Of a stretch of 64,000 nt of DNA, positions 17,237-62,211 are shown one piece after another. The first letter of the stretch is position 1, and the number at the start of each line of letters is the position of its first letter. The DNA is from Thermodesulfobacteriota bacterium (GTDB lineage Bacteria > Desulfobacterota > Desulfobulbia > Desulfobulbales > SURF-16). The stretch spans positions 135,896 through 199,895 of the forward strand of contig JBFMAY010000001.1 in NCBI GenBank assembly GCA_040755455.1. The letters are read 5' to 3'. Both the position numbers and the translations under genes were made by a program. The notes beneath the pieces are model-generated. The model did no database searches. It saw nothing but the letters and a program-made list of their open reading frames with translations, and was not told the DNA's origin.

Positions 17237-17400
17237 GCTGATATTTCTCCGCTGGTGTGCTGAAGGGAAAATGGCTGACCAGCTATTCAATAACAAAGGC
17301 TATGTTTTTGTCAAGTAGGAGTGCAGAGGCGCATGGCCACCGGCAGGTTGTCATGCAAGAGATAAGATGGCCCATGCAGGCAAAATGTTTCACTTTAACT

Positions 17401-17460
17401 GGCATAAGGGGCCGCAACGAAATGGTCAGCAGGGTAATGGTTATTTCGTAACAACCCCTT
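17401..17460 (+). repeat. Copy A of a ~58-nt intergenic hairpin repeat (consensus GGCATAAGGGGCCGYAACGAAATG-N~19-GGTTATTTCGYAAC..CCC)
   Basis: Aligns by eye to 42687-42744 and 42788-42845. Both arms are conserved and the loop varies. It lies in the divergent region upstream of the CHASE kinase gene. Confidence 0.7.
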
Positions 17461-17505: not shown

Positions 17506-22113
<4,608 letters not shown>

Positions 22114-22230
22114 CAGGCAGCGGGAACACAAGAGAGAATCCGTGGCCGGTGGAGGAGCTGCCTAAGCGCGGCCCTCTTCCCGGAGGGGCTTTGCCGGCCA
22201 GGGCATGTTAAACCAAGCAGGGGAGACACC

Positions 22231-25800: not shown

Positions 25801-27392
25801 TTGCCGTGATCTTTATGGACATCACCGAGCGGAAGAGGGCCGAGACGGAACGGGAACGGCTGCTCATGGCCATCGAGCAGTCCGGCGAGGTCATCGTCAT
25901 CACCGACCCTGATGGCATCATCCAGTATGTCAATCCGGCCTTTGAGCGGGCAACGGGCTACAGCCGTGACGAAGTCCTGGGCCAGAACCTGCGCCTGTTG
26001 AAGAGCGGCCGACAGGAGGAGGCCTTTTATGAGGAAATGTGGCGGGTGATCTCCGGAGGCGGGAACTGGCGGGGACGTTTCGTCAATAAACGCAAGGACG
26101 GCACGCTTTTTACCGAGGAGGCCAGCATCTCGCCGGTGCGGGACACCCAAGGCCGGATCGTCAATTACGTGGCGGTCAAGCGCGATATCACGGAGCATCT
26201 GCGCATTTCCGAAGAGAATGCCAAGCTGGAGGCCCAGTTTCAGCAGGCCCAGAAGCTTGAGTCCGTCGGCCGTCTGGCCGGCGGCGTGGCCCATGATCTC
26301 AACAACCTGCTCACCCCGATTCTCGGTTACGCAGAGATGCTGCTGGATGATTTCAGCGAGGAAGACGGGCGCAGGGTGGACATGGCAGAGATCGTCAAGG
26401 CGGGCATGCGGGCCCGGGATCTGGTGCGCCAGCTCCTGGTTCTCAGTCGCAAGCAGGTGATGGAGTTGAAATCCATCGATGTCAACAACCTGCTGACCCA
26501 GTTTGACAAGCTGCTGCGCCGCACGATCCGCGAGGATGTCGCCATTGATCTCATTCTGGCCCCGTCGCTGCCGCTCATCAAGGGTGATATCGGGCAGCTG
26601 GAGCAGGTGATCATGAATCTGGCGGTCAACGCCCAGGACGCCATGCCAGACGGTGGCAGGCTGACCATGGAAACGGAGATGGTCGCGGTGGATGAGGTCT
26701 ATGCCGCGGGGAAACCCGGCATGCTCCCCGGCCCTTACGTCAGGTTGACCATCAGCGACACGGGCTGCGGCATGGACGCCGAGACCTGCAGGCACATCTT
26801 CGAGCCGTTTTTCACCACCAAGGAAAAGGACCAGGGTACCGGACTGGGCCTGGCCACCGTCTACGGCATTGTCAAGCAGCACGGCGGCAGTATCTGGGTC
26901 TACAGCGAACCCGGCCACGGCTCAACCTTCAAGATATATTTTCCTGTTGCCGAGGCCCAGGCTGCGGCGGAGGAAGTCGTTGCGGCAAAACCCGCAGACA
27001 GGGATGGCTCCGAAACCATTCTGCTGGTGGAGGACAATGAGCAGGTGCGCAATCTCGCCCGGGCCATTCTCAGCCGGCGGGGCTACTCGCTCCTCATCGC
27101 CCAGGACGGCAGCGATGCGCTGCGCATCCTCGCCCGGCACCATGGGCCGCTGCACCTGATACTGACCGACGTGATCATGCCCGGCATGAGCGGCAAGGAG
27201 CTTTTTGACCGGGTTGCCGCTCTTTACTCTGATATGAAGGTGCTTTACATGTCGGGCTATACCGATAATGTCATTGCCCAGCGCGGCGTGCTTGACCAGG
27301 GCATTCACTTCATCCAGAAACCTTTCACCGTCACGGGCCTGCTGGCCAAGGTGCGGGAAGCGCTGGATCAGGCTTCCCGCAGCGCCAGCTGA
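22854..27392 (+). CDS. Multidomain sensor kinase (REC x2, multiple PAS, PocR-like domain, HisKA, HATPase, C-terminal REC)
   Basis: The start overlaps the upstream stop (ATGA). Two N-terminal REC domains ('LIVTDLYMPVIDG', 'VAVLDYHLPDATG'). H-box 'GGVAHDLNNLLTPILGY'; HATPase 'DTGCGM' and 'GTGLGLATVYGIV'; C-terminal REC 'ILLVEDNEQVR...LILTDVIMPGMSG'. Confidence 0.92.
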   Translation: MMNNTTSTRPAARAVVVNDDVNQLNVLSGLLRREGIEVQPWQSAEAALAAMDRHRPPDLIVTDLYMPVIDGWRFCRLLRSPEYPSCNHIPILVISATFAGDEAARITRELGANAFLPAPVDGKQFIEQVRAILAGRLLRHIPRVLLVENSPTLAGLLQKAFESHGYLADTASTARTAAAAFACAAYDVAVLDYHLPDATGDLLLADFRAGRPDCVCIMMTTDPSPELALAWMRQGAAAYLRKPFDPASLIELCAMACRERALLRVEDLLEKRSRELREAECRYRTLFEQSPDGVVILHPGTAQPLEFNEQACRQLGYSREEFARLRLSDIEAAETAEESQVRIANVIREGHDDFDTLQRTKQGEIRHVHVTAQLIDVGGRPVYHCIWRDITERKRAAEMLRESETQVRAKLDAILSPAGDIGLLDLRDILDVRAIQELMNDFFSLTHIGVGIIDLHGKVVVATGWQDICTRFHRRHPETCRNCMESDTELSAGVPAGTFKIYKCRNNMWDIATPVMVGGRHMGNLFLGQFFFAEDTPDRDTFVAQARQYGFAEDEYLAALERVPRWSRETVNTIMSFYARFTTLLSTLSYSNIKLARTVEERREAEEALRQSEARLAESNQLMAGVLDHTHMMVAYLDARFNFIWVNRAYAQTCGQEPGFFPGKNHFALYPHEENQAIFQRVADTGEPFFVAAKPFEFPDQPERGVTYWDWSLVPTRDSAGKITGLVFTLAEVTSRIRAEETLRRSEELLNATQRLTKVGGWEWDLEKQTMFWTEEVYRIHGLNPGCVAPGAAEHVARSLECYDPGDRPVILSAFQRCAEEGQAYDLEFPFTPCSGGRIWIRTGAEAVMEAGKVVRIVGNIMDITERRLAEETLRNSEERYRLLFAAMDSAFALHEILRDANGSPCNYRFLEVNPAFERLTGLKAGELIGKTVLDVLPETEHLWVERYGHVVDSGETIHFENYSRNLSRHYAVTAYRPRPGQFAVIFMDITERKRAETERERLLMAIEQSGEVIVITDPDGIIQYVNPAFERATGYSRDEVLGQNLRLLKSGRQEEAFYEEMWRVISGGGNWRGRFVNKRKDGTLFTEEASISPVRDTQGRIVNYVAVKRDITEHLRISEENAKLEAQFQQAQKLESVGRLAGGVAHDLNNLLTPILGYAEMLLDDFSEEDGRRVDMAEIVKAGMRARDLVRQLLVLSRKQVMELKSIDVNNLLTQFDKLLRRTIREDVAIDLILAPSLPLIKGDIGQLEQVIMNLAVNAQDAMPDGGRLTMETEMVAVDEVYAAGKPGMLPGPYVRLTISDTGCGMDAETCRHIFEPFFTTKEKDQGTGLGLATVYGIVKQHGGSIWVYSEPGHGSTFKIYFPVAEAQAAAEEVVAAKPADRDGSETILLVEDNEQVRNLARAILSRRGYSLLIAQDGSDALRILARHHGPLHLILTDVIMPGMSGKELFDRVAALYSDMKVLYMSGYTDNVIAQRGVLDQGIHFIQKPFTVTGLLAKVREALDQASRSAS

Positions 27393-31933: not shown

Positions 31934-32090
31934 TTGTCCTTTGTCGAATCGTTATCAGTCCGGCCTAACTTTCTGCCGATCATTGACGGGAGGTTGGGCA
32001 TTTTTTTTATGATCTTCCAGTAAACCAGAGATTTGCATTATTTCACCATCAACGTTGTCATTTTCTTTGCTTAAAAAAACAGGAGCCGGC

Positions 32091-34541
32091 ATGGCACGAC
32101 GGGAAGCTGCCCAGAACATCTTTGTCAGGTTCGACAGGCTGCGGGACAGCCTGAAGCAGATTATTTTCGATCAGGACAAGGCCATTGACGAGGTGGTGGA
32201 TGCCTTCATTCATACGGCCTACAAACCGGTTGCCGCACCGCCCAAGGCGATTTTTACCTTCCTGGGCCCTCCCTCGGTGGGCAAGAAGAGTCTTGCCCGG
32301 GCCCTGACCTCACATCTGGAGGAATATGCGGCTTTCAAGCAGTTTGATATGGAGCAGTTCGCCGATCCTGAGAGCGGGGCCCAGCTGTTTAGCCAGCGGT
32401 TGACCGCTGACGGGGTGCAGGAGGGGGAGTTGGCGGGGTTTATCAGGGAGCACCCGCAGTCCATTATTCTCTTTGATTCCATTGAAAAAGCGGACAATCA
32501 ACTGCAATTGGCCCTGTTCAATCTGCTCACCCGCAACGAGGAGGAGAGCGGCATCAACTGCAGCGGCGTTATCGTGATATTCACCTCCAGCCTCGGCTGC
32601 AGTTTTTTCAAGGATAGAAAGTACCAGGAGGCTTTCAAGGAAAACAAGCTGCGCGCCCAGGCCCTGGTCATGGATGCCCTTTCCAAGGAAAAAAAGGCGG
32701 TCTACGATACGGTGCAGAGCGCCATTGCCCCCAAGCTGCTGGCCGCCATGGCGCGCAATTTCATCATCCTGTTCAATTCCCTGAGCCTGGATACCCTGGT
32801 GCGCATCGGGGGTGAATCCTTGCGCTGTCATTCAGAGCAGTTTGCCCAGCTCAGCAAAATGAAAGTGGAATATCATAATTTTGACCGGATCGCCACCCTG
32901 CTGACCCTGTCATTTTCCCCCAATATCAGCGTTACGAGGCTGAAACAGAAACTGCCCGATCTCTTTCTCGGCAGGATCACGCGATTTGTTCGGGACCAGA
33001 GGAAGTATCCCCAGCATATCGTCTGCAGGCTTTCCAGGCAGGCCGATGCTTTCCTGGAGAAGATATGCCAGGACAAAGAGACATTGCTGGCGCGGCTTTA
33101 CAAGAAAAACGAAACAGTGGATATCACCTGGAAAGAGACCCTGAGCGGTCAGAAACTGACCTGCGCCATCCACAAAGCGGAACTCAAAAGGCTGCCGCCG
33201 GCCAGTGATTTTTTCCGTGAACTGCTGCCGGGGGTGGAATTTTCCACCCTGGGCTTTAAGGATATAGCCGGCAATAAGAGCACCAAGAAGAATCTTAAAC
33301 AGATTGTCAAAATTCTCCGCGAGCCTGAACTGCTGAAAAAATTCAACATCGACATGCCCAAAGGCATGCTGCTTTATGGACCTTCCGGAGTGGGCAAGAC
33401 CATGCTGGCCAAGGCCTTTGCCCGGGAAACGGAAAGGCCGTTTGTCTATGTGTCCAGAAGCGATCTGTTTGATCCCGTCTATATCAGGAACGCCTATCTC
33501 AAGGCCAGGGAGTTTGCCCCGAGCATCGTCTTTCTTGACGGCATTGACGTCAAAGGCCTGATGGAGGGGGTCTATACCTCCATGCCGGATGACCAGCTGA
33601 CCCTGGAGCTGGACGCCCTGTCCGGGGACCCAGAGGATTCCGTTTTCACCATCGCCACCGCCCAGATCAAGGCCGATGTCAGTCCCCGGGTCATTGCCCC
33701 CAACAGAATCGATATCTTTGTCGAGGTGCCCGAGCTTGACCGGGACGCCAGGCGCTTTTTCATCGAAAAGATTCTGGAGAAACCCAACGACGGCAAAATC
33801 AACGTGGAGCGGGTGATCCGCTATATCTCAGGCATGAGCGGCTATGATCTGCAGCGCATCGGCAAAGAGGCGTCCCTCTATGCCATCCGCAATGATCTGG
33901 ACCGCATCACCGAAGATATCCTCATCGAGGAGATCAATATCATCAAGTATGGCTATAAGCTGGAGAAGAAGCGCATCAGAAATCTTGAGCAGGATCTGAA
34001 AATCACCGCCTACCACGAGGCCGGCCACGCGGTGCTGTCGCATCTGCTGCTGCCGGATATCAAGATTGAGCAGGTGACCATCGCGCCGCGGCTCAAATCC
34101 ATGGGATTCATCTCCTACAGCATGGAGGATTTTCCCGGCAACATCTCCAGGGATGAGGTCTTTGACAACATCTGCGTGCTGCTTGGCGGGCGCACGGCCA
34201 GCATCAGGAAATTCGGCAGCAAGGGGATCGACACCGGCGCGGCAAACGACCTGGAGGTCGCCACCCATCAGGCCTATGCCGCGGTCGCCAGTCTGGGCAT
34301 GGATGAGGAGATCGGCTATGTGCACACCGATACCCTTTCCCAGAATGTCAGCAAGCAGATGTTTCTCACCAAGGTTGAGACGCGGGTCAGCCATTGGATG
34401 CGCGAGGCGAGCGCCAAGGCGGAGACGCTGGTGGAAAAGCACTGGGATAAGGTGGAGCAGCTGGCCTCGATCCTCATCCGTCAGGAAATTGTCGACGGCG
34501 TCGAACTGGAAAAGATCATGAAGGGGCTCAAGGACTCCTAG
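32091..34541 (+). CDS. Soluble FtsH-like protein: Clp/Hsp100 D2-like AAA module + FtsH-type AAA module + M41 peptidase domain
   Basis: AGGAG lies 6 nt before ATG 32091. N-terminal module: 'FLGPPSVGKKSLARAL', 'IILFDSIEKA'. FtsH-like module: 'LLYGPSGVGKTMLAKAFARE', 'IVFLDGID'. M41 motifs: 'AYHEAGHAV', 'LLGGR', 'TGAANDLEVAT'. I saw no hydrophobic TM segment. Confidence 0.85.
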   Translation: MARREAAQNIFVRFDRLRDSLKQIIFDQDKAIDEVVDAFIHTAYKPVAAPPKAIFTFLGPPSVGKKSLARALTSHLEEYAAFKQFDMEQFADPESGAQLFSQRLTADGVQEGELAGFIREHPQSIILFDSIEKADNQLQLALFNLLTRNEEESGINCSGVIVIFTSSLGCSFFKDRKYQEAFKENKLRAQALVMDALSKEKKAVYDTVQSAIAPKLLAAMARNFIILFNSLSLDTLVRIGGESLRCHSEQFAQLSKMKVEYHNFDRIATLLTLSFSPNISVTRLKQKLPDLFLGRITRFVRDQRKYPQHIVCRLSRQADAFLEKICQDKETLLARLYKKNETVDITWKETLSGQKLTCAIHKAELKRLPPASDFFRELLPGVEFSTLGFKDIAGNKSTKKNLKQIVKILREPELLKKFNIDMPKGMLLYGPSGVGKTMLAKAFARETERPFVYVSRSDLFDPVYIRNAYLKAREFAPSIVFLDGIDVKGLMEGVYTSMPDDQLTLELDALSGDPEDSVFTIATAQIKADVSPRVIAPNRIDIFVEVPELDRDARRFFIEKILEKPNDGKINVERVIRYISGMSGYDLQRIGKEASLYAIRNDLDRITEDILIEEINIIKYGYKLEKKRIRNLEQDLKITAYHEAGHAVLSHLLLPDIKIEQVTIAPRLKSMGFISYSMEDFPGNISRDEVFDNICVLLGGRTASIRKFGSKGIDTGAANDLEVATHQAYAAVASLGMDEEIGYVHTDTLSQNVSKQMFLTKVETRVSHWMREASAKAETLVEKHWDKVEQLASILIRQEIVDGVELEKIMKGLKDS

Positions 34542-38928: not shown

Positions 38929-41292
38929 CTACATGGAGCTGATCTGCAGATCGATCAGGTCATCCATTCTGTCCAGGTAAATATCCAGGGGCTGCTGCCT
39001 GAGGGCGGCGAGTCCGACCCGGAGATCCAGGGCCTGGATATCATGGGCGAGAGAGGGCGAGCCGACTATCTTCTCCGCCTCGTCATAGCGGTTCAGCTTG
39101 ATCAAGGCCTTGGCGCAATTGATGGCCGCTTCCGCGCTGCTGCCGGCAATGGGGTTAAGGATCTCGTATGCCTTTTCAGGCCAGCTGTTGGCCAGCAGTA
39201 TCCGGCCCGTATGTTCCATGGTGGAGTCGTTCCGGGGCAGCAGGTCAAGCAGGGGCTCCGCCTGGTGCCGAAAGCCGAGTTTCAGGTAGAAATTCAATAG
39301 GCTGAGGAAGTCGGTCATTTCTCCCATGAGTTTCTGCGGCAGGGAGTCCTTGAGCACCATGTAATAGAGATTTTCGTTCTGTTTGCGCAGACCGTCCAGA
39401 TCATTGAAGCGATAGATGTTCTGCGGCGGGTTATCCGGCAGACCATCCATATGGTCAATGATGACGGGCTCCATCACCTGATGGAGAAAAACCTGGAACA
39501 TGAGGGTCCGGCCGGCGAGTTCACTGCGGCCGTAATCAGCCGGGAAGCTTACCGGAAACTGGCTGACCCTGCCTCCCTTCATGCCCTGCAGACCGGCCTC
39601 GAAATCAGGGAGGAGTTTGCCGCTGCCCAGCACGGCATCCTGGTAATAGGCCTCGGTGGCCGGCACAACCTGGCCGTCCAGAATACCCTTGCAGTCGTAT
39701 ATAACCTTGCAGCCGTGGGCTGCGGTGCCGCGGCGTTTGCAGCGAAAGCCGGTAAACGGTCCGGCCAGGAAGCTTGTTACCTCCGGATCATGGGGAAATT
39801 GAGCCTTGAGCCGGGTCATGCATTGATGGGCGGCATGAAATTCCTCCAGGCACAGATAAATCTGCGTCAGCATGATGAGGGCCTCGGGCCGGCAGGAAAG
39901 GGCCGCGAAGTTTGCGGTGATGAAGCCCGCCACCTCGAAAAGGTTGCTGCCGGTGGCAACGTTTTCCTGGAAATCCTGACGATTCAGGCGCCACAGCATG
40001 CTCATTCGCCGGATTTCCTCCTCGCTCATGGCGTCGGTGGCGAAATCGCGGCATATGCTCAGGTAAGCTGGTTTGGTCACGGCCAGCGGTTTGATGCCAT
40101 GGGCCTCATGGTCGTCAAGGATGGGGATGCCGAAGAAGAGGTGCAGCTGCTGGGAAATGGAATTGCCGCTGACGGGCACCCTGTTGGCCTTGACAAAATC
40201 CAGGGTTTTCTGGGCATGGGCAAATGACTCCCCTGGCAGGCCGAAGAGGGTGAAGAGTTCAACGTTGATGCCGGCCTGCTGGACTTTGCCGATGACCCCG
40301 GCGAGTTTTTCCGGGTTGAGTCCCTTATTGATTCTGGTCAGCACCTCGTGGTCGGCTGATTCGAGTCCGAAGGCAATGGTGTGGGCCCCCGCTTTTTTGA
40401 GCAGCTCGAGCAGCTCGTCATCAATGAGATTGTATCTGGTCTGGCACCAGAAGGTGATGGCCGGGCATTGGGTAATGATGCTGCGCAGCAGCTCAACAAG
40501 CCGCCCGCGGGAAAAGGCGAAGTTGGGATCGGCAAACCAGAAGTCGCGGATGCCCCTGGCCTGCAGATGTTTGATTTCGGCCGTGACCCGGCCGATGGAA
40601 TGAAACCGTACCTTTTTATTGCTGGCGCGGGTGGTGTAACAGAAGGTGCAGGGCGAGGTGCAGCCCCGGGAGGTGAGGAGAATAACCCGGCTCTTGCCGG
40701 CCGTGTCGATGATCCCTTCCAGGTAGGGGGAGGGCAGGCTGTCAAGGTCCTCCACCACCTCCGCCGGTGGGGTGTCAACCGCCTTTCCCTGATCCAGGTA
40801 GCAGATGCCCGGCACCTCGGCAAGGGGCCTGCCCTTGTCCAGGGCCCGGCCAAGGGCAGGCAGTACTCCTTCACCTTCCCCCCGGCACAGGATGTCCACG
40901 TTCTTCATCTGGAGCAGGGCCGCGCCGGGCATGAAGGTGATCTGGGGGCCACCCAGGATTACCAGAATTTCCGGGCGGAGCCTTTTGGCATAACTGGCCC
41001 AGACCAGCACCCTGTTGATGTTTTCGTCATAAACCGAAAAACCGAGCACATCCGGTTTTTCGGCGGCAAGCATATCGCGGAAAAGTTTCGGCGGCAGAGG
41101 TCTGTCCTTGTAATCGCCGAGAATGGTGCCGCTGTAGCCGTGCTTCCTGAGGGCGGCCAGAGCGTAGGCCTGGGAGATGGGAATGGTATCCGGGGAGTCG
41201 ATGGTGGCCCATTCATTGACATGTATGAAGAGAAAGTTTGTCCTGTCTGCCTGTCGGTTTTGCTTCATGACGTGGCTGCTCCTGCTCATCAT
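38929..41292 (-). CDS. B12-binding radical SAM protein fused to an FKBP-like PPIase segment and a TPR-like tail
   Basis: The N-terminal part is B12-binding-like ('DVLGFSVYDEN...VILGGPQITF'). The radical SAM cluster is 'RGCTSPCTFCYT' (CxxxCxxC). The FKBP/trigger-factor-like part is 'LGSGKLLPDFEAGLQGMKGGRVSQFPVSFPADYG...FQVFLHQV'. The start could be ATG 41268, which has AGGAG upstream. Confidence 0.85.
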   Translation of the reverse strand: MMSRSSHVMKQNRQADRTNFLFIHVNEWATIDSPDTIPISQAYALAALRKHGYSGTILGDYKDRPLPPKLFRDMLAAEKPDVLGFSVYDENINRVLVWASYAKRLRPEILVILGGPQITFMPGAALLQMKNVDILCRGEGEGVLPALGRALDKGRPLAEVPGICYLDQGKAVDTPPAEVVEDLDSLPSPYLEGIIDTAGKSRVILLTSRGCTSPCTFCYTTRASNKKVRFHSIGRVTAEIKHLQARGIRDFWFADPNFAFSRGRLVELLRSIITQCPAITFWCQTRYNLIDDELLELLKKAGAHTIAFGLESADHEVLTRINKGLNPEKLAGVIGKVQQAGINVELFTLFGLPGESFAHAQKTLDFVKANRVPVSGNSISQQLHLFFGIPILDDHEAHGIKPLAVTKPAYLSICRDFATDAMSEEEIRRMSMLWRLNRQDFQENVATGSNLFEVAGFITANFAALSCRPEALIMLTQIYLCLEEFHAAHQCMTRLKAQFPHDPEVTSFLAGPFTGFRCKRRGTAAHGCKVIYDCKGILDGQVVPATEAYYQDAVLGSGKLLPDFEAGLQGMKGGRVSQFPVSFPADYGRSELAGRTLMFQVFLHQVMEPVIIDHMDGLPDNPPQNIYRFNDLDGLRKQNENLYYMVLKDSLPQKLMGEMTDFLSLLNFYLKLGFRHQAEPLLDLLPRNDSTMEHTGRILLANSWPEKAYEILNPIAGSSAEAAINCAKALIKLNRYDEAEKIVGSPSLAHDIQALDLRVGLAALRQQPLDIYLDRMDDLIDLQISSM

Positions 41293-41595
41293 TTATAGAT
41301 GTGTCGCGTTTATTTTTTTGTTATATTTCCTTTCGCCCCTGCTGAGCAGCGTAGTCAAACGGCAAGCTGTCGATGTGCATGTGCATTGCGGTGCTGAGCC
41401 GGGCGGACCGTTAATTGATAAATTGTCGCAAGTAAGTCATGTGTCTGTTTCACCAAAAAAAGAGCAGGAAACAAGACATGGCTTCAAAATTTTCAGTACA
41501 TTATCGTGTGAAATATCAGTTGTCAATCGATCCTGTGCATTTAATGCCGTGGGGTAATGGTAGGAGAGTTTTTCCGTTGCCTTGCATTGTTCCGG

Positions 41596-41624
41596 TTGAC
41601 AAAAAGGATATTTGTAGATAAATC
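41596..41624 (+). promoter_or_regulatory. Candidate sigma-70-type promoter (TTGACA-17 nt-TAAATC)
   Basis: A perfect -35 hexamer and a 4/6 -10 hexamer lie ~60 nt upstream of ATG 41685. Confidence 0.3.
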
Positions 41625-41684
41625 AGATTGTGATGTAGGTATTGGTACCTAAACCGGCTTGAAATTTTTCTTTTTCCCCCGTAA

Positions 41685-42653
41685 ATGACGCCATACAGAC
41701 CTCTGACCATAATCAGTCATCCGCATTACCTGGAGCATGATACAGGAGGCGGAGACCATCCGGAAAGCCCTGAACGTCTACGATTCATTGATAGGCAGCT
41801 CAAGGACAGCCCCCTTTCCCCCTGCATCACTAAAAAAACCGCCAGAAGAGCGCTGCGGGAGGATGTCCTCGTCTATCACACGGAGGCCTATCTGTACCGC
41901 CTGGAAGAAACCGCCCTGAAAGGACAGACCTATATTGACCACCGGGACAATCAGATCTGTTTCGAGTCCTTTGAGGCGATTCTGCTTGCGGCCGGGGGCT
42001 GCCTGACCGGCATCGATCTGCTGGAAGAGGGCAGCGATCTGGTTTTCTGCTGCATACGGCCTCCGGGCCACCATGCGGAACGGGCCATGGCCCTGGGTTT
42101 CTGTTTCGTCAATAATGCGGTTGTCGCCGCCAGGTACTGGCAGAAACGGTATGGACGACAAAAAATTGCCGTCATCGACTGGGACGCCCATCACGGCAAC
42201 GGCATCCAGGATGCCTTTGAGGAAGACCCTGATGTTTTTTACATCAGCATCCATGAGCATCCCACTTTCAGCTTTCCGGGCACCGGCTATGCCGAGGAAA
42301 AAGGCCTGGGGGCAGGGGCCGGCACCACCCTGAATATTCCCCTGCCGCCCGGGGCCGATGACGCCATGTTTCTCCGCGCTATGAGCAAATTCGTGGAGCC
42401 GGCCCTGGACGTCTTCCGGCCGGAGAGGATTATCGTTTCCGCCGGATTTGACGGGCATGTGCTGGATGACATGTCAGGACTGTCCTACAGCACGGAGCTT
42501 TACGGCGTGATCGGCGAGCGGATGGCGGCACTGACCGACAGGTATTGCCAGGGGAAAAGCCTGTCGATCCTGGAAGGCGGCTATCATCTGGAAGCCCTGG
42601 CCGCCAGCGTTGAACGTTACCTCCTTGGCCTGGCCAAGTGTAAGCCGTTGTAA
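41685..42653 (+). CDS. Histone deacetylase-family (AcuC/HDAC-like) deacetylase
   Basis: 'IRPPGHHA', 'VIDWDAHHGNGIQ' and 'LEGGY' are the arginase/deacetylase-fold catalytic motifs. Confidence 0.9.
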   Translation: MTPYRPLTIISHPHYLEHDTGGGDHPESPERLRFIDRQLKDSPLSPCITKKTARRALREDVLVYHTEAYLYRLEETALKGQTYIDHRDNQICFESFEAILLAAGGCLTGIDLLEEGSDLVFCCIRPPGHHAERAMALGFCFVNNAVVAARYWQKRYGRQKIAVIDWDAHHGNGIQDAFEEDPDVFYISIHEHPTFSFPGTGYAEEKGLGAGAGTTLNIPLPPGADDAMFLRAMSKFVEPALDVFRPERIIVSAGFDGHVLDDMSGLSYSTELYGVIGERMAALTDRYCQGKSLSILEGGYHLEALAASVERYLLGLAKCKPL

Positions 42654-42686
42654 AAAAATAACTGTAACATCGCCATTACGGTGAAC

Positions 42687-42744
42687 GGCATAACGGGCCG
42701 TAACGAAATGGTCAGAGATGTAATGGTTATTGCAACGGCCCCTA
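42687..42744 (+). repeat. Copy B of the ~58-nt intergenic hairpin repeat
   Basis: GGCATAACGGGCCGTAACGAAATGGTCAG...GGTTATTGCAACGGCCCCT. The arms GGGCCGTAACGAAAT and ATTGCAACGGCCC are imperfectly complementary. Confidence 0.7.
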
Positions 42745-42787
42745 ACCCGATATAAAAAAACAATATCGTCGTCCCGATGTCAGAGAC

Positions 42788-42845
42788 GGCATAAGGGGCC
42801 GTAACGAAATGCTCAAAAAAGAAGAGGTTATTTCGCAACGGCCCT
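42788..42845 (+). repeat. Copy C of the ~58-nt intergenic hairpin repeat
   Basis: GGCATAAGGGGCCGTAACGAAATGCTCA...GGTTATTTCGCAACGGCCCT forms a 14-bp stem with a 2-nt internal mismatch. It ends 5 nt before the AAAGGAG SD of the next gene. Confidence 0.7.
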
Positions 42846-42862
42846 AAATAAAGGAGTGGAAA

Positions 42863-43540
42863 ATGTATATAGCACGCCATATGACCTCACCGGCGCTGAC
42901 TGTTTCCCCGGACACCCTGCTGCCGGATGTCCGTGAAATCATGAATACCCGCAGGTTCAGGCACCTGCCGGTGGTCGATGAGCAGCAGCGGTTGATCGGT
43001 ATGATCACCGACCGGGATCTGCGTTCCGCCTATCCCTCCTCGCTGCTGCCCGAGGACAAGCGGCTGGCTATCCTGGAGAAGGTGGCCAAGACCGAGGTCA
43101 GGTCCATCATGTCCCAGAAGATCATTGCCATTACCCCGCTTTCCACCCTGGATGATGCCCTCTATTTCCTGTCCAAGGAAAAAATCGGCATGCTGCCGGT
43201 GGTTGATGAGGAACAGCATGTTATCGGCGTCTTTTCCGTCCATGACCTCATGATGGCCTATAAAAAACTCTATGGCATCGGCGATCGCGGTTCCGCACTG
43301 ATTGCCGTGGAGGATGACGGCAAGCCGAAACCTCTGACCAGAATCGTCCGGGTGCTGGAGGAGCGGGAAATCCGCTTTTCCCGCCTGACCAGGGTCCATG
43401 GCGAGGCCGGGGAAAAGAAGATCATCTATCTGCGCGTCCATACCTTCAACCTCAATGTGGTGCATAAGGCGCTGAAAGAAATCGGCATGACCATGATGGT
43501 TCCCGATCTGCAGGAAATTCTGCCAAAGCCCCATGCCTGA
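42863..43540 (+). CDS. CBS-pair + ACT-like domain protein (AcuB-like)
   Basis: Two CBS motifs ('HLPVVDEQQRLIGMITDRDL', 'MLPVVDEEQHVIGVFSVHDL') are followed by a ~70-aa ACT-like C-terminus. SD AAAGGAG lies upstream. Confidence 0.85.
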   Translation: MYIARHMTSPALTVSPDTLLPDVREIMNTRRFRHLPVVDEQQRLIGMITDRDLRSAYPSSLLPEDKRLAILEKVAKTEVRSIMSQKIIAITPLSTLDDALYFLSKEKIGMLPVVDEEQHVIGVFSVHDLMMAYKKLYGIGDRGSALIAVEDDGKPKPLTRIVRVLEEREIRFSRLTRVHGEAGEKKIIYLRVHTFNLNVVHKALKEIGMTMMVPDLQEILPKPHA

Positions 43541-43611
43541 TCGAGCCGGTCTGAGCTTTTTCTCGCAATACCGGTAACTACCGCAGCAACCTGGGGGGAG
43601 GTGGGTTCATC

Positions 43612-45489
43612 ATGAACGCAGAAAATGCAGGCTGTGATCCTGACTGGCAGAACCGTTACAGCGACATGATTGCCACCGCCCGAAAGGCGGTCTCCCATGT
43701 GAAGCACGGGCAGCGGGTTTTTATCGGCACCGGCTGCGGCGAACCGGTTGAACTGGTCAAGGCGTTGACCGACCGTGCCGGCGAGCTGGCGGATGTGGAG
43801 ATTATCCACTTGATCACCAAAGGTGAGGCCCCCTATGCCTGCAAACGTCTGGCCGATTGTTTTTCGGTCAACAGTTTCTTCATCGGCGCCAATGTGCGCG
43901 ATCATATTCAGGAAGGGCTTGGGCATTACACCCCCATGCTGCTGTCCGATATCCCCAGGATCTTCAGTTCCGGCCAGATTCCCCTGGATGTGGTCCTGCT
44001 CCAGGTGACACCGCCGGACATGCGGGGCAAGGTCAGCCTGGGCGTGTCCGTTGATATCGTAAAAAGCGCGGCGGAAAACGGCTCGCTGGTCATCGCCCAG
44101 GTCAATCCCCTGATGCCCAGGACCCTGGGGGATTCCTTCCTTGATATCTATGATCTCGACATCCTGGTTCCCATTGCCACCCCGCTCATCGAGCGGCAAG
44201 CCGGTCCGCCCAACGAGGTGACCAGAAAGATCGGCGGCTATATCGCCTCGCTGGTGGAGGATGGCTCTACGGTGGAATTCGGCATCGGCACGATTCCCCA
44301 GGCCCTGGTGGAATTTCTCAAGGACAAGAAGGACCTGGGCATCCATACGGAAATGCTGAGCGAAGGTGTCATCGAGCTGATTGAAGCGGGCGCGGTCACC
44401 GGCAGAAGGAAAACCCTGGATGCCGGCAGGATCGTCACCAGCTTCTGCATGGGCACCAAAAAGCTCTATGACTATGTGGACAACAACCCTCTCTTCTGTT
44501 TCCGTCCCACCGAATATGTCAATGATCCCTTCATCATCGGCAGGCAGCATAAGATGGTGGCCATCAATATGGCCCTGGAGGTTGACCTCACCGGCCAGGT
44601 CTGCGCCGATTCCTTGGGCTCAAAGTTCTACTCGGGCATCGGCGGCCAAGTTGATTTCAACCGTGGCGCGGCACGGTCAAAGGGGGGCAAGGCCATCATC
44701 GCCATGCCGTCCACGGCGCTTGATGACACGGTGTCCCGCATCGTGACCCGGCTCGCCACCGGCGGCGGGGTTGTTACTTCCCGCGGGGAAGTGCATTATG
44801 TCATCACGGAATACGGCATTGCCTATCTGCATGGCAAAAGCGTGCAGGAGCGCTGCCTGGCCCTGATCAGCATCGCCCATCCCCATTTTCGGGAGCAGCT
44901 GCTGAAGGAGGCCATTGAGGCAAAATACATCCGCCAGGAAATGTCTGATGTGGAAGGTCGTTTCATGGTGGCCTCCCAGGAAATGAAGACATCGGTGCTG
45001 CTTGATGACGGCACCCAGATCAATTTCCGCCACGTTCATCCCACCGATCTGCCGCGCATGCGCGATCTGCTCTACGCCCTGTCCCAGGAAACGATCTATT
45101 ACCGGTTCATGACCCGCTCCCAACGTTTTGCCCATAGTCAGATCCAGAACTTCGTCTATGTGGATCACCGCAAGGATGTGGCCATCGTGGCCACGGTGCC
45201 CGAGGCCCACGGGGAGGATATCATTGCCATCGGCCGTTATTATCTTGATGAACGGACCAACCGGGCGGAGGTGGCCTTTGTGGTCCACGATCAGTGGCAG
45301 AACCGGCATATCGGCACGTTTCTCTTCAAATATCTGGCGGCCCTGGCCAAGCGCAGCGGCATTGCCGGGTTTACCGCGGAGGTGCTGCTGGAAAACAGAA
45401 GGATGCAGGCCATATTCAACAGTTCCTCTTTGAAGGTGGAAAGCCAGAGGGAAGAGGACGTCTACCGGTTCAAGATCGAATTCGATTAG
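43612..45489 (+). CDS. Acetyl-CoA hydrolase/transferase-family domain fused to a Pat-type GNAT acetyltransferase domain
   Basis: The N-terminal ~430 aa are colinear with CoA-transferase family I ('GQRVFIGTGCGEP', 'EMLSEGVIEL', 'SGIGGQVDF'). The C-terminal GNAT has 'YYRFMTR' and 'VVHDQWQNRHIGTFLFKYL'. SD GGGGGGAGGTGG lies upstream. Confidence 0.85.
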   Translation: MNAENAGCDPDWQNRYSDMIATARKAVSHVKHGQRVFIGTGCGEPVELVKALTDRAGELADVEIIHLITKGEAPYACKRLADCFSVNSFFIGANVRDHIQEGLGHYTPMLLSDIPRIFSSGQIPLDVVLLQVTPPDMRGKVSLGVSVDIVKSAAENGSLVIAQVNPLMPRTLGDSFLDIYDLDILVPIATPLIERQAGPPNEVTRKIGGYIASLVEDGSTVEFGIGTIPQALVEFLKDKKDLGIHTEMLSEGVIELIEAGAVTGRRKTLDAGRIVTSFCMGTKKLYDYVDNNPLFCFRPTEYVNDPFIIGRQHKMVAINMALEVDLTGQVCADSLGSKFYSGIGGQVDFNRGAARSKGGKAIIAMPSTALDDTVSRIVTRLATGGGVVTSRGEVHYVITEYGIAYLHGKSVQERCLALISIAHPHFREQLLKEAIEAKYIRQEMSDVEGRFMVASQEMKTSVLLDDGTQINFRHVHPTDLPRMRDLLYALSQETIYYRFMTRSQRFAHSQIQNFVYVDHRKDVAIVATVPEAHGEDIIAIGRYYLDERTNRAEVAFVVHDQWQNRHIGTFLFKYLAALAKRSGIAGFTAEVLLENRRMQAIFNSSSLKVESQREEDVYRFKIEFD

Positions 45490-45606
45490 TCCGCCACCCA
45501 GTCTGACTATTTTTTGCCTGCCGGCATCTCCGCCTTGCTTCTTCTGGGGGGAAATGTCATGATTTAAACGTCATGATGTTTTGTTCAAGTTTTTGTGTGC
45601 CTCGCC

Positions 45607-47082
45607 ATGGGAAATACCTCGCCGCTAAAGATATTTGTCTTATTGACCCTGCTGATCGGTCTGATCGAGCAGGGCTTGATGTATTTTCTCGGTGCCGGCG
45701 CCATTGCCCTGCATCCTTTTGTCGTGGGCATGCTGGATTCGTTTTTCCTCATCCTGATCCTTTTTCCCTTTCTGTATCTGCTCGTCTACCGGCCTTTTGG
45801 CAAAAACATGGAAAACCTCTGCCAGGCAAAGGAAAGGGCGGAGGAGGCGCATGACCGTCTCCTGTCGGTGCTGGACAGCATTGATGCCATTATCTACGTT
45901 GCCGACATGCAGACCTATGAACTGCTCTTTGTCAACAGGTACACCAGGGAGATGTTTGGTGACATTACCGGCAGGATATGCTGGCAGACGCTGCAGATCG
46001 GTCAGTCAGGTCCGTGCCCTTTCTGCACCAATGACAAACTGGTCAATGCCGTCGGCGAACCGCAGATGTGCAGATGGGAGTTCCGCAACACGGTCACCGG
46101 CCACTGGTATGATATCCGCGACCGGGCGATCCGCTGGGTGGACGGCCGGCTGGTGCGTATGGAAATTGCCATGGACATCAGCAGCCGGAAGAAATCGGAG
46201 GAACAGATCAGACAGCAGAATACCTTTCTGCATAATGTGCTTGAGTCCCTGCCCTACCCTTTTTATGTGGTGAATACCGATACCTACGAGATTGAACTGG
46301 CCAACGGCATTGCTCTGCATCAGGGAATCAGCAGGGGCAGGAAATGTTATGCCGCAACTCATGATGCCGATGCTCCCTGTAATTCGGCGGAGCACCAATG
46401 CCCATTGAATCTCGTGAAAAGGCTGCGGGAGCCGGTTATCGAGGAGCATGTGCACAAGGACCGGCACGGCAATGATAAGTACGTGGAAATTCACGGCTAC
46501 CCCATTGCCGATGAAAACGGCAGGGTCAGCCGGATGATTGAGTATCAGATCAATATCACGGAGCGGAAAAAAGTCGAAGAGGCCCTGCGCCGCATTGCCG
46601 TCACCGATGAGATGACTAAACTGTATAACCGGCGCGGCTTTCTCCTGCTGGCCGAAAAACAGATCAAGATCGCCGACCGCATGCCGGGCGAGCTTTTTGT
46701 TCTTTATGCCGACTGCGATAAGTTGAAATGGATTAACGACACCCTGGGGCATAAGACCGGCGATCAGCTGATCATGGAAACGGCGGAGATGTTGCAGAAT
46801 ACCTTTCGGCAGGCGGATATCATCGGCCGCCTGGGCGGCGATGAATTTGTCGTGGTCATGGTGGATGAATCCGGCAAGGAAAGCGTCAATACGGTCAAAG
46901 AGAGGCTGGCAAGCGCCATCGTGAAAAGAAACGAGCTGCCGGACCGCCGGTATGTTCTTTCCCTGAGCTACGGCATTGTCCGCTACGATAAGAACAACCC
47001 CTGTTCCATGGAGCAGCTGCTCTCAAAGGCGGATCATATCATGTACAAGGTGAAAAATGAGCACAGGGAAAAATTACCATAA
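45607..47082 (+). CDS. Diguanylate cyclase (membrane anchor, two PAS-like domains, GGDEF)
   Basis: The N-terminus is hydrophobic. One PAS carries 'GRICWQTLQIGQSGPCPFC'. GGDEF domain: 'YNRRGF', 'DCDKLKWINDTLGHKTGD', 'RLGGDEFVVVM' with I-site 'RQAD'. Confidence 0.9.
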   Translation: MGNTSPLKIFVLLTLLIGLIEQGLMYFLGAGAIALHPFVVGMLDSFFLILILFPFLYLLVYRPFGKNMENLCQAKERAEEAHDRLLSVLDSIDAIIYVADMQTYELLFVNRYTREMFGDITGRICWQTLQIGQSGPCPFCTNDKLVNAVGEPQMCRWEFRNTVTGHWYDIRDRAIRWVDGRLVRMEIAMDISSRKKSEEQIRQQNTFLHNVLESLPYPFYVVNTDTYEIELANGIALHQGISRGRKCYAATHDADAPCNSAEHQCPLNLVKRLREPVIEEHVHKDRHGNDKYVEIHGYPIADENGRVSRMIEYQINITERKKVEEALRRIAVTDEMTKLYNRRGFLLLAEKQIKIADRMPGELFVLYADCDKLKWINDTLGHKTGDQLIMETAEMLQNTFRQADIIGRLGGDEFVVVMVDESGKESVNTVKERLASAIVKRNELPDRRYVLSLSYGIVRYDKNNPCSMEQLLSKADHIMYKVKNEHREKLP

Positions 47083-60117: not shown

Positions 60118-61131
60118 ATGAAAATGCAGCTCAGTTTGGCAGTGTGTCTTGTTTTTCTTGCTTCGATGCTTTCGCTTGCCGGTTGCGTGACTCCCGGCAC
60201 CAATGCCACGGTGACATCCGGACAGGGCGGTCCGGACATAGCCCAGGCCCAGGCCCAGGCCTATAATGGCCCGCAGGCCAGGATCGCCGTGGCCCGCTTC
60301 ACGGACAAGACCGGCAAAGGCTGGTGGACCGGAGGTATCGGCGACGGCATGGCTGATCAGCTGACCACCGCCCTGTTCAACACCAACCGCTATATTGTCT
60401 TGGAGCGCCAGGCCCTTGACGATGTCCTTACCGAACAGGACCTGGGGGCCTCGGGCAGGGTGCGGGCGGACACCGCCGCCGAGATCGGCCAGATTGAGGG
60501 GGCGGAATTGATGGTCGTTGCCGCGGTCACCGAGTTTGAGGGCGCCGCATCCGGGGCCAGCGGCGGACTGGGCGGCGGCGCAGCCGGGGTGATCGGCGGT
60601 CTGTTGGGCGGCTTTCAGAAGGCCCATATGGCCATCGACATGCGCATCATTGATGCGAAAACCTCCCGGGTGCTTGCCGCAACCAGTGTTGAAGGCGAGG
60701 CCACTGATGTCAATCTCGGCGGTCTGCTGGGCGGCTATGGCAGCTCCGGCGCCCTGGTCGGCGGTCTGTCCGGCTGGAAGAACACCCCGACGGAAAAGGC
60801 CCTGAGGATCTGCATCCAGAAGGCCGTGGATTTCATCGTCAGCAAAACCCCGCAGTCCTATTATCATTACGGCGCGCAGCCGGTTGCCGCTCCTGCCCCG
60901 GCCTCATCCTATCAGGCCCCGGCCGGCGCAACATCCGGCGAGGCGGTTATTGTCGTGCCTGAAACCTTGAATGTCCGCAGCGGTCCGGGGGAAAATTTCT
61001 CCGTGGTCTTCTCCGCCCGGGGAGGCGACCGGTTTTCCGTTCTGGAAAAGCAGGACAAGTGGCTCAGGGTCAGAGCCCAGGACGGCCGTGAAGGATGGGC
61101 CGCCGGCTGGCTGACCTCGCCGGTCCGTTAA
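60118..61131 (+). CDS. CsgG-family lipoprotein fused to a C-terminal bacterial SH3 domain
   Basis: AGGAGG SD and lipobox 'MLSLAGC'. CsgG-like 'RIAVARFTDKTGKGWWTGGIGDGMADQLTTALFNTNRYIVLERQALDDVLTEQDL' plus a Gly-rich hairpin region. SH3_3-like 'LNVRSGPGENFSVVFSARGGDRFSVLEKQDKWLRVRAQDGREGW'. Confidence 0.85.
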   Translation: MKMQLSLAVCLVFLASMLSLAGCVTPGTNATVTSGQGGPDIAQAQAQAYNGPQARIAVARFTDKTGKGWWTGGIGDGMADQLTTALFNTNRYIVLERQALDDVLTEQDLGASGRVRADTAAEIGQIEGAELMVVAAVTEFEGAASGASGGLGGGAAGVIGGLLGGFQKAHMAIDMRIIDAKTSRVLAATSVEGEATDVNLGGLLGGYGSSGALVGGLSGWKNTPTEKALRICIQKAVDFIVSKTPQSYYHYGAQPVAAPAPASSYQAPAGATSGEAVIVVPETLNVRSGPGENFSVVFSARGGDRFSVLEKQDKWLRVRAQDGREGWAAGWLTSPVR

Positions 61132-61184
61132 GCAGCCGCGGGTCACAACCTGCGCATGAGCAAAATGAGGGGACTGGAGGTTGC

Positions 61185-62204
61185 CTACCGCCAGATCCCC
61201 TCAATTTTTTCCTTGCAGGCCGGGCAGTGGCCGTCGGCAATGTTGTTCTTTCTGATGCTGAAGCCGAAGCGGGTGATCAACTCCATGCCGCAGGCCGGGC
61301 AATAGGTGTTTTCCCCGCCTTCACCGGGGATATTGCCCTCATAGACAAAACGCAATCCCTCCTCCAGGCCGATCTCCCTGGCCTTGCGCAGGGTGCTTGC
61401 CGGGGTGCGGTCCCGGTCCATCATCTGAAAGGTCGGGTAGAAGGCGGTCACATGCCAGGGCATGGCGGGGTCCACGCTTTTGAGGAAGCGGGCAACCTCG
61501 CGCAGTTCCTGGGAAGAATCGTTCAGGCCCGGGATGATCAGGGTGGTCACCTCCACCCACACCCCCAGTTCGCGCATGAGGCGCACATTGTCCAGCACGG
61601 GCTGCAGCCGCGCCTTGCACACCTTTTTGTAGAAGCTCTCGGTAAAGGCCTTGATGTCGATGTTGATGCCGTCCAGCACCGGAGCCAGGTGCCGGGTGAC
61701 CTCGGCCGACATGTAGCCGTTGCTGACAAAGATGTTCCTGATGTTCCTCTCCCGGGCCAGCACGCAGCAATCATAGGCGAATTCATAGAAGATGGTGGGT
61801 TCCACGTAGGTATAGCTGATGCTTTGGCAGGCCTGCTCCACGGCATTTTCGACGACGTCTTTCGGGCCGGCCGGCTGGCCGATGATCGCTCCTCCCTGCA
61901 TGCGGGGATACTGGGAAATCTGGTAGTTCTGGCAGTGCAGGCAGCGGAAGTTGCAGCCCACCGTGGCGATGGAATAGGAGGTGGAGCCGGGCAGCACATG
62001 GAACATCGGTTTTTTTTCGATGGGGTCAATGTTTTCCGATACCAGTCTGCCATAGATCAGACTGTGCAGGGTGCCCTGCCGGTTTTCCCGTACCCCGCAG
62101 ATCCCCCGTCCGCCTTCCTTGATGTGGCAATGGTGATTGCAGAGATCGCAGATTACCTCGTTTTCCTGGCCGGTGTGATAAAAAAGGGCCTTCTTCATGG
62201 TCAT
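61185..62204 (-). CDS. AmmeMemoRadiSam-system-type radical SAM enzyme
   Basis: 'CDLCNHHCHIKEGGRGICGVRENRQGTLHSLIYG', 'DPIEKKPMFH' and 'GCNFRCLHCQNYQIS' (CxxxCxxC), plus a C-terminal 'CPACG...CPAC'. Confidence 0.85.
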   Translation of the reverse strand: MTMKKALFYHTGQENEVICDLCNHHCHIKEGGRGICGVRENRQGTLHSLIYGRLVSENIDPIEKKPMFHVLPGSTSYSIATVGCNFRCLHCQNYQISQYPRMQGGAIIGQPAGPKDVVENAVEQACQSISYTYVEPTIFYEFAYDCCVLARERNIRNIFVSNGYMSAEVTRHLAPVLDGINIDIKAFTESFYKKVCKARLQPVLDNVRLMRELGVWVEVTTLIIPGLNDSSQELREVARFLKSVDPAMPWHVTAFYPTFQMMDRDRTPASTLRKAREIGLEEGLRFVYEGNIPGEGGENTYCPACGMELITRFGFSIRKNNIADGHCPACKEKIEGIWR

Positions 62205-62211
62205 CTCTCCC

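Follow-up and report, generated by a model that had tools for sequence, protein, structure and literature searches.

A CoA-transferase::GNAT fusion beside an HDAC-family deacetylase and an AcuB-like protein: a candidate reversible lysine-acetylation module in Thermodesulfobacteriota

What function joins three co-oriented genes at positions 41685–45489 of a 64-kb stretch of Thermodesulfobacteriota DNA (hereafter the window), the last of which links a CoA-transferase (CoAT) domain to a GNAT acetyltransferase? An earlier, sequence-only reading had taken them for an acuABC-like lysine-acetylation module. The window was mapped for open reading frames (ORFs), and its proteins were searched against the Pfam and NCBIfam profiles. 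The account favoured here, considered moderately probable, is that the three genes act together as a set for reversible lysine acetylation, with a CoAT-fused writer, an HDAC-family eraser and an AcuB-type gate, and that an ADP-forming acyl-CoA synthetase (ACD) was the ancestral partner of this set.

The ORF map placed three intact, co-oriented genes at exactly the positions given by the sequence-only reading, and the locus was laid out as follows:

41293..41684, + strand: intergenic region of 392 bp, the presumed site of the operon promoter, common to the divergent radical-SAM gene
41685..42653, + strand: HDAC-family deacetylase, 322 aa, class-II-like (HDAC6-like), from PF00850 and PDB matches
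42654..42862, + strand: HDAC–CBS spacer of 209 bp with two tandem copies of a hairpin element, from repeats and fold z-score
42863..43540, + strand: AcuB-type CBS-CBS-ACT protein, 225 aa, from Pfam, PDB sequence matches and AlphaFold2/Foldseek
43541..43611, + strand: CBS–fusion spacer of 71 bp, the site of the ACD gene in relatives, from locus comparison
43612..44934, + strand: CoAT domain of the fusion, residues 1–441, from Pfam, NCBIfam and PDB
44935..44991, + strand: inter-domain linker, about residues 441–460, from the AlphaFold2 model
44992..45489, + strand: Pat-type GNAT domain, residues 461–625, plus the stop codon, from PDB matches and NF058543

The gene order was C-B-A, unlike that of acuABC and as previously described, and a gap of 105 bp separated the fusion from a downstream PAS-GGDEF gene. 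The identical layout, including the 209-bp and 71-bp gaps, was seen in three independent metagenome samples reached through an exact match of the CBS protein, which excludes an assembly artefact. The CBS protein had a match of 100% identity in a Thermodesulfobacteriota metagenome-assembled genome (MAG), while an exact-sequence look-up of the fusion protein returned no record. The nearest genomic locus was that of a Desulfurivibrio sp. MAG, with a fusion identity of 93%.

The fusion ORF (43612–45489, + strand) encoded 625 aa, with the CoAT domain N-terminal and the GNAT domain C-terminal. Residues 20–434 matched PF02550 (80.2 bits) and PF13336 (221.9 bits), both above the Pfam gathering score, and the best PDB match of the domain was 9VAG, the Thermus enzyme TtCoAT (E = 3e-130). 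The catalytic Glu247 (in HTEM) and the GXGG motif (SGIGGQ, residues 341–346) were present and aligned with those of TtCoAT and 3EH7; from the alignment offset, E247 is presumably the counterpart of Glu238 of AbfT. By homology, the domain belongs to family I and to its 4-hydroxybutyrate/butyryl-CoA:acetate subfamily. It scored 304.1 bits against the butyryl-CoA:acetate CoA-transferase equivalog TIGR03948, below the cut-off of 674.8, so that its substrate specificity is not assignable. The AlphaFold2 model of the fusion had a predicted local distance difference test (pLDDT) score of 92.3 overall and ∼70 in the linker, with a predicted template modelling (pTM) score of 0.88.

GNAT models of Pfam matched residues 471–602, and residues 460–606 aligned to the mycobacterial NCBIfam model NF058543, ‘acetyltransferase Pat’ (E = 5e-24). 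The motifs YYRFMTR and QNRHIG lay at residues 496–502 and 563–568. The PDB matches were SlPatA 4NXY (1e-14), MtPat 4AVA (7e-14), full-length Pat 9ISQ (4e-12) and 9IT0, and Sulfolobus Pat, with no AcuA chain among them at E ≤ 0.01. The catalytic Glu553 fell in AEVAF, aligned with AEIAF of MtPat and AEVAF of SlPatA. The P-loop read Q563-N-R-H566-I-G568 against QGRGIG, placing His at the first-Gly position.

The middle protein contained two PF00571 CBS domains (E = 2e-29), and this Bateman module carried the ribose-phosphate motifs GMITDRDL and GVFSVHDL. The Pfam ACT models gave no match in the protein. Its best PDB sequence matches were the AcuB entries 9S4V, 9QS7 and 9S4W (E ∼2e-21 over residues 16–217), and its AlphaFold2 model (pLDDT 88.6) ended in a beta-alpha-beta-beta-alpha domain, a truncated ACT domain at about residues 140–225, with the same truncated topology as in BsAcuB (PMC13121692). 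In a Foldseek search against PDB, the top 18 matches were all AcuB, with template modelling scores of 0.75–0.86 over ∼214 columns, followed by Thermus TTHA0829 (CBS plus ACT), while CBS-only proteins had E-values worse by ∼10^9-fold. The middle protein is thus AcuB-like by sequence and by predicted fold. As two papers of 2026 show, the Bateman domain of AcuB takes up adenine nucleotides or Ap4A, and AcuB inhibits AcuC by pushing M188/M189, a residue of an ACT-domain loop, into the tunnel for the substrate (PMC13039410, PMC13121692). The most conserved ACT segment in the window's family was the loop R191-V192-H-T194-F195-N196, with the pattern R-V-x-T-[F/Y/M]-N and residue counts at position 195 of F19/Y14/M2/L1; the counterpart loop of AcuB is R-V-K-T-M-N.

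The first gene matched PF00850 (Hist_deacetyl, E = 7e-89) and had a complete catalytic set: the H129-H130 pair, the zinc ligands D167/H169/D256 and the catalytic Tyr Y300. The motifs PPGHHAE, DWDAHHGNG, SAGFDGH and LEGGY aligned with HDAC6. The best PDB matches were the catalytic domains of HDAC6, the bacterial ‘lysine deacylase’ 5ZMP and HDAH-type enzymes; acetylpolyamine amidohydrolases and HDAC10 were also among the matches, and no class-I HDAC appeared in the top 60. Since the closest PDB relatives are of HDAC6 type and AcuC is a class I HDAC (PMC13039410), the protein of the window is class-II-like and not of AcuC type. A literature search for whether 5ZMP is the Thermus lysine deacetylase (KDAC) found no paper.

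The domain assignments of the sequence-only reading, namely HDAC, two CBS domains, the CoAT domain and GNAT, were all reproduced by profile search. The 625-aa combination of an acetyl-CoA hydrolase/transferase-family domain with a Pat-type GNAT carrying the two motifs was upheld by Pfam, NCBIfam and PDB, and the AcuB-like CBS-CBS-ACT architecture by PDB sequence matches, the AlphaFold2 model and Foldseek, the ACT domain being seen by structure. For the first gene, the placement in the HDAC family stood, whereas its AcuC-like class did not.

One scan of species-representative genomes revealed 182 relatives of the fusion, and 80 related loci (≥55% identity) were fetched, with the taxon labels of their MAG records. 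These labels included Desulfurivibrionaceae and other Desulfobulbales, Planctomycetota, Verrucomicrobia, Actinomycetota, Nitrospirales, Lentisphaerota and Hydrogenedentes. An ACD gene of ∼700 aa (∼2.1 kb) lay directly upstream of the fusion and on the same strand in 72 of the 77 loci that had 300 bp or more of upstream sequence, a count that, like the other synteny counts, depends on tblastn thresholds and contig ends. The five loci without it (L001–L005) were those of the window's own clade. The encoded domain set was complete (CoA_binding_2, Succ_CoA_lig, Ligase_CoA_2 and ATP-grasp_5), the phospho-His loop SSHTG was invariant in all 65 sequences, and the best PDB match was the ADP-forming 4-hydroxybutyrate-CoA ligase 8WZU (E = 2e-151, vs 7e-96 for Pat). 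In one locus (L011), the ACD stop overlapped the fusion start. The linkage held in fusions at 52%, 45% and 38% identity and was absent at 34% and in an Fe-S-extended form. ORFs of 1212 aa in L018 and L022 were not counted as ACD::CoAT::GNAT fusions; their ACD and fusion matches were in different frames, and they are probably an artefact of simple longest-ORF calling in GC-rich DNA.

By this comparison, the window's clade lost the adjacent ACD gene from its operon. [quoted passage not shown] The N-terminal position of the domain stood, but not the replacement, since the ACD of relatives is a separate upstream gene: the NDP-forming module is encoded separately and has been lost here. Gene order and spacing were kept in L003–L005, and dN/dS within the ACD-less clade was 0.09–0.16 for all three genes (0.09–0.14 for the HDAC gene) across four pairwise comparisons for each gene, so that purifying selection acts on the whole trio.

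The HDAC and CBS genes travelled strictly together, with 32 loci carrying both and none carrying just one. The pair preceded the ACD–fusion pair in 32 of the 61 loci whose upstream sequence reached 4 kb or more, all 32 being Desulfobulbales-type (32 of 44 such loci) and mostly Desulfurivibrionaceae. The proposed synteny of the trio was found in part: HDAC and CBS accompany the fusion in these loci, but only in the window's clade do the three genes lie side by side. A second HDAC association occurred in loci labelled Planctomycetota, Pirellulales, Phycisphaerales and Verrucomicrobia, with the gene directly downstream of the fusion. This HDAC was 28% identical to that of the window, and the copy in L077 best matched the class-I proteins Clr6, HDAC8 and HDAC1-3. 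Two further proteins were CoAT::GNAT::HDAC triple fusions of 955 and 1013 aa (P0165, L092 2122–4989; P0168, L093 8001–11042), the former with a class-II-like HDAC 34% identical to that of the window and the latter with a class-I-like one. Both had degenerate CoAT catalytic residues, and no ACD lay near either. The presence of writer and eraser on a single chain is unusual in itself. Judging from these relationships, an HDAC has been joined to a CoAT::GNAT writer at least four separate times, a strong indication that writer and eraser share their substrates. The link between writer and eraser that the sequence-only reading had assumed was thus reinforced by four independent associations, two of them on single polypeptides.

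The catalytic Glu and GXGG of the CoAT domain were invariant in the 80 loci, as was AEVAF of the GNAT. Conservation across the wider family was followed in 69 diverse full-length representatives, most of them below 50% identity to the protein of the window. Here the catalytic CoAT residue was Glu in 45 of 69 members and D, Q, G, P, V, C, A, F, S or I in the others, and GXGG was often degenerate or unrecognisable, while the GNAT Glu (E in 55 of 69 at position 553) and P-loop were mostly kept. This persistence of the GNAT motifs while the CoAT catalytic residues decay suggests a regulatory role for CoAT in the wider family; it also suggests that the CoAT fold is retained even when catalytically dead and that the GNAT is the constant active element. 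In the window's own subfamily, the motifs indicate that the CoAT domain is very probably still an active enzyme. The sensing function previously assigned to it therefore fits the wider family, but sits less well with the fully intact motifs of this subfamily. Five proteins (P0130, P0131, P0183, P0241 and P0262) were further fusions of the same CoAT subfamily; P0130 (L086 6001–8883) is a 4Fe-4S-cluster domain::CoAT::GNAT protein of ∼960 aa, and other fusions of the subfamily joined a response-regulator receiver to CoAT, CoAT to enoyl-CoA hydratase, and CoAT to a periplasmic-binding-protein-like domain.

How would such a set work? The GNAT would transfer acetyl groups from acetyl-CoA to protein lysines, and the CoAT domain, which would occupy the slot of the dead ADP-forming-synthetase-like domain of Pat, would tune it to the acyl-CoA/acetate state. 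The class-II-like, Zn-dependent HDAC would remove the acetyl groups. By analogy with Bacillus AcuB, the AcuB-type protein is probably an energy sensor gating the deacetylase: it would sense adenine nucleotides through its CBS pair and block the HDAC by placing Phe195 of the ACT loop, instead of Met188, in the substrate tunnel. Ancestrally, the fusion would have been translationally coupled to a competent ACD, the prime candidate for its partner or target, and the module would set the flux through the acyl-CoA/acetate/ATP node. The window's clade would then have dropped the ACD from the operon and kept the other three genes under purifying selection. The target may be the ACD, the fusion's own CoAT domain or a protein whose gene lies elsewhere. 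Gene content, domain identities, catalytic motifs, synteny, the fusion proteins of relatives and selection are established by the sequence data, whereas all the activities, the interaction between the AcuB-type protein and the HDAC, the regulatory role of CoAT and the target are inferred.

A bolder form of this proposal is put forward only tentatively, and is held to be unlikely as it stands. Here the ACD and the CoAT::GNAT fusion, with the HDAC and in this clade the AcuB-type protein, would make up a self-contained acetyl-CoA/acetate/ATP homeostat in which the GNAT switches the ACD off by acetylation. The CoAT domain would read the acyl-CoA pool, possibly through a covalent Glu-CoA intermediate, and gate the fused GNAT; in the window's clade the circuit would have been rewired after loss of the adjacent synthetase.

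Several observations weigh against a reversible lysine-acetylation set of this kind. No ACD relative better than E = 0.8 was found in the 64-kb window by tblastn. Of the loci with enough upstream sequence, 12 of 44 of Desulfobulbales type lacked the HDAC/CBS pair near the fusion, as did every one of the 17 from other phyla. A 209-bp structured insert parts the HDAC gene from the CBS gene, so that their co-transcription is only presumptive. His86/87 of AcuB is not conserved, being Thr in the alignment, and the known partner of AcuB is a class-I HDAC, where the deacetylase here is by its sequence class-II-like. Judged by the PDB matches, the homologues of class-II-like bacterial HDACs include small-molecule amidohydrolases. 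Finally, the first-Gly position of the GNAT P-loop was Gly in 62 of 69 diverse relatives and is His in the window, so that alignment of the GNAT returned the catalytic Glu in place but a P-loop that departs from the canonical Q/R-x-x-G-x-G/A, the motif for the pyrophosphate of acetyl-CoA. Within the 80 loci, this fourth P-loop position toggled between G, H, R and Q in several separate lineages, which suggests that the His is a tolerated variant and not a sign of decay. A dead GNAT was rejected as an explanation, given the variation of this position across lineages, the invariance of the rest of the domain and the purifying selection.

Four other explanations were weighed against the writer–eraser–gate set. 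The main rival, held to be unlikely, is a cis-regulated enzyme whose main business is CoA transfer, such as butyryl-CoA:acetate, the fused GNAT acetylating the CoAT domain itself, within or between subunits, so as to tune or release its activity, and the HDAC reversing the mark. It would need no external target, which would explain a module that still works after ACD loss, and it fits both the invariant CoAT motifs of the subfamily and the purifying selection on a trio with no adjacent ACD. The AlphaFold2 model places the two domains as one confident body (pTM 0.88), and TtCoAT, the closest solved relative of the domain (9VAG), carries more acetylation than any other protein of its host, its mark being written by the GNAT TT_C1711 and erased by the Zn-dependent TT_C0104. 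However, the acetylated Lys5 of TtCoAT is Thermus-specific, the fusion has no conserved N-terminal Lys, and its only invariant Lys residues are K239, K267 and K409. GNAT and HDAC moreover persist where CoAT catalysis has been lost, as in both triple fusions; a dead CoAT needs no control of its activity, and self-acetylation is therefore unlikely as a general rule. The sequence-only reading itself had made CoAT a pure acyl-CoA sensor in place of the NDP-forming domain, acting on a distant AMP-forming acetyl- or acyl-CoA synthetase. It placed the target outside the window: a Pfam scan of ten window ORFs, none above 1,000 aa, turned up no AMP-binding domain, and this agrees with a distant target. 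One third of the wider family has a CoAT domain that is a pseudoenzyme, and every characterised Pat-type GNAT among the nearest relatives of known structure has AMP-forming acyl-CoA synthetases as its substrates (PMC8556138, PMC12184503). Yet no AMP-forming synthetase recurred among the neighbours in the 80 loci, the near-universal neighbour (72 of 77) being an ADP-forming one with an intact catalytic His, and the strict retention of the CoAT Glu and GXGG in the subfamily is not what a pure sensor would need. This explanation is accordingly rated distinctly unlikely.

GNATs often act on small molecules, and the locus might also encode a small-molecule pathway, in which the GNAT N-acylates a small amine, the CoAT domain supplies the acyl-CoA and the HDAC-family enzyme serves as an amidohydrolase for the product, with no acetylation of proteins. 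The acetylpolyamine and other amidohydrolases among the HDAC matches would fit, and a CoAT fused upstream could channel an unusual acyl-CoA. The evidence on the proteins themselves makes this improbable: all solved GNAT relatives at E ≤ 0.01 are protein lysine acetyltransferases and the NCBIfam match is Pat, the HDAC best matches the catalytic domains of HDAC6 and a ‘lysine deacylase’, and the sole known role of an AcuB-type partner is to gate a protein deacetylase. The interchange of two HDAC classes in relatives likewise fits a generic acetyl-lysine eraser better. Lastly, after ACD deletion and repeat insertion the three genes might be mere neighbours in an operon remnant. The absence of the ACD from the window's clade only, the 209-bp structured repeat insert between the HDAC and CBS genes and the gaps of 71 and 105 bp flanking the fusion gene could be taken that way. 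The three ORFs are, however, intact with complete catalytic motifs, dN/dS is 0.09–0.16, order and spacing are kept in L003–L005 and in the three further samples, and no convincing terminator separates the genes, and a remnant is considered very improbable.

How far, then, does the proposed writer–eraser–gate set resemble known systems? As in B. subtilis acuABC, three roles (acetyltransferase, deacetylase and AcuB-type protein) are found in one co-oriented cluster, and the AcuB-like protein matches over its full length in sequence and fold, down to the shortened topology of the ACT domain and the plug loop R-V-x-T-[M/F]-N. The writer, however, is a Pat-type GNAT fused to CoAT, whereas AcuA is a single-domain protein; the eraser is class-II-like and AcuC is class I; the order is C-B-A and the plug residue is Phe instead of the Met of AcuB. 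The divergent acsA is absent, the divergent upstream gene of the window being a B12/radical-SAM-FKBP-TPR protein, and the host belongs to the Thermodesulfobacteriota and not, as with acuABC, to the Firmicutes. Three of four acuABC features (AcuA-type writer, class-I AcuC and adjacent acsA) are thus lacking in the window.

The fusion shares with type I Pat/PatZ (YfiQ) and type II SlPatA a GNAT with an aligned Glu and a homologous P-loop region, and with Pat a large N-terminal domain derived from an acyl-CoA enzyme, which in the CoAT family often loses its catalytic residues; the ACD-like domain of Pat is catalytically dead (PMC8556138). Its fused domain is nevertheless a family-I CoA-transferase and not an NDP-forming acyl-CoA synthetase, and in the window's subfamily it keeps all catalytic motifs. 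Relatives, moreover, encode a separate ACD with an intact catalytic His, and the P-loop of the window has His at the first Gly. In Thermus, TtCoAT (TT_C1083) is acetylated by the lysine acetyltransferase TT_C1711 and deacetylated by the Zn-dependent KDAC TT_C0104, with the NAD+-sensing ADLP as accessory (bioRxiv 10.1101/2025.10.31.685773). In both cases, a CoAT of the same subfamily is thus tied to a writer of GNAT type, an eraser that depends on Zn and a non-catalytic, nucleotide-sensing accessory. The Thermus components, though, are four separate proteins, of which only the CoAT and ADLP genes are described as adjacent; CoAT is there the substrate and in the window a domain of the writer; ADLP is an alanine-dehydrogenase-like NAD+ sensor acting on CoAT, while the AcuB-type protein would act on the deacetylase; and the acetylated Lys5 of TtCoAT is not conserved. 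Type III GNATs (the cAMP-GNAT MtPat, the ACT-GNAT AAPatA and the NADP-GNAT MxKat) likewise join an N-terminal domain for ligand binding to a C-terminal Pat-type GNAT, but the putative regulatory domain of the window is an enzyme fold of ∼440 aa that binds or converts acyl-CoA and not a small cAMP, amino-acid or NADP+ sensor.

Bacterial lysine acetyltransferases have been sorted into five architectural types, with ACD-like, cAMP-, amino-acid (ACT)- and NADP+-binding regulatory domains; a CoA-transferase regulatory domain is listed neither in the review nor in the 2025 structure-based survey (PMC8556138, PMC12184503). A literature search for a CoA-transferase::GNAT protein found no description, in agreement with the earlier judgement that the module was uncharacterised. 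NCBI labels relatives as ‘bifunctional acetyl-CoA hydrolase/transferase family protein/GNAT family N-acetyltransferase’, so that the fusion is already annotated yet, as far as found, unstudied. The locus would accordingly be an uncharacterised variant of reversible lysine acetylation in bacteria.

The CoAT::GNAT family is large and old, with dozens of clusters below 50% identity in several phyla. If the proposed set is real, it would be a sixth way to wire the state of acetyl-CoA into protein acetylation, it would point to acetylation control of ADP-forming synthetases like that of AMP-forming ones, and it would extend the AcuB mechanism beyond Firmicutes and class-I deacetylases. Live and dead CoAT domains would then offer a comparative series on how enzymes become sensors. 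Were the homeostat form true, control of an NDP-forming synthetase by acetylation would be seen for the first time, and the system would be a living model of a pre-Pat stage, with the synthetase as a live partner of the GNAT and not a dead regulatory domain. Cultured relatives for experiments are Hydrosulfovibrio ferrireducens CB1MN, Desulfurivibrio dismutans AMeS2 and Thiovibrio sp. JS02.

The spacer between the HDAC and CBS genes was filled, at 42685–42845, by two tandem copies of a dispersed hairpin element of ∼60 nt spaced 101 nt apart, with the sequence GGCATAA-GGGCCGYAACGAAATGG...GGTTATTTCGYAAC-CCC; the fold z-score of the spacer was -4.5. A third copy lay at 17400–17460, 5' of a 1535-aa ORF starting at 17506, and both sites of the window were directly 5' of a + strand gene and had no T-tract. 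The same two copies were found in L004 (9070–9230), whereas the HDAC–CBS gap was far shorter in L001 and most other relatives (mostly ∼3–50 bp). The insertion between the HDAC and CBS genes is specific to the window's clade. No credible Rfam match was obtained for the whole window at gathering thresholds or for 41250–45700 at E ≤ 5, and the repeat is thus not a known RNA family; it could be an element resembling repetitive extragenic palindromes (REP) or miniature inverted-repeat transposable elements (MITE), or a cis-regulatory RNA.

A consensus promoter scan gave no strong sigma-70 match in 41293–41684, and its promoter-like matches were fewer than in shuffled sequences and none was convincing between the genes. 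Terminator-like matches were only slightly more frequent than in shuffles; none lay convincingly between the genes, and a weak hairpin was scored at 43539–43551. Divergent from the HDAC gene, 38929–41292 (- strand) encodes a 787-aa protein with B12-binding, radical SAM, FKBP-type prolyl isomerase and TPR parts, an unusual domain combination that is conserved as upstream neighbour in the window's clade (cluster c17). A PAS-PAS-GGDEF diguanylate cyclase gene (45595–47082, + strand) follows the fusion gene, co-oriented and 105 bp 3' of it; with no terminator-like site between them, the two may be co-transcribed. This position is kept in the window's clade (cluster c3) and is taken by a response-regulator-Hpt gene in other relatives. 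The remaining recurrent neighbour clusters of the 80 loci, comprising sigma-54 activator, U32 peptidase, isocitrate dehydrogenase, CN-hydrolase, Mfd, response-regulator-Hpt, HD-domain and ClC-CBS proteins, were in no case tied to the module.

Elsewhere in the window, two ORFs of 467 and 415 aa (2766–4169, - strand; 61095–62342, + strand) had no Pfam match at E ≤ 1e-5. An 828-aa protein (32055–34541, + strand) combined two AAA+ modules, one of them Cdc48/ClpB-like, with a following M41 (FtsH-type) peptidase, an atypical FtsH-like architecture. The G+C content was ∼63% in 10000–14000 and 18000–26000, vs 51–58% in the rest of the window, and these blocks coincided with very long ORFs of 1169, 1535 and 1512 aa.

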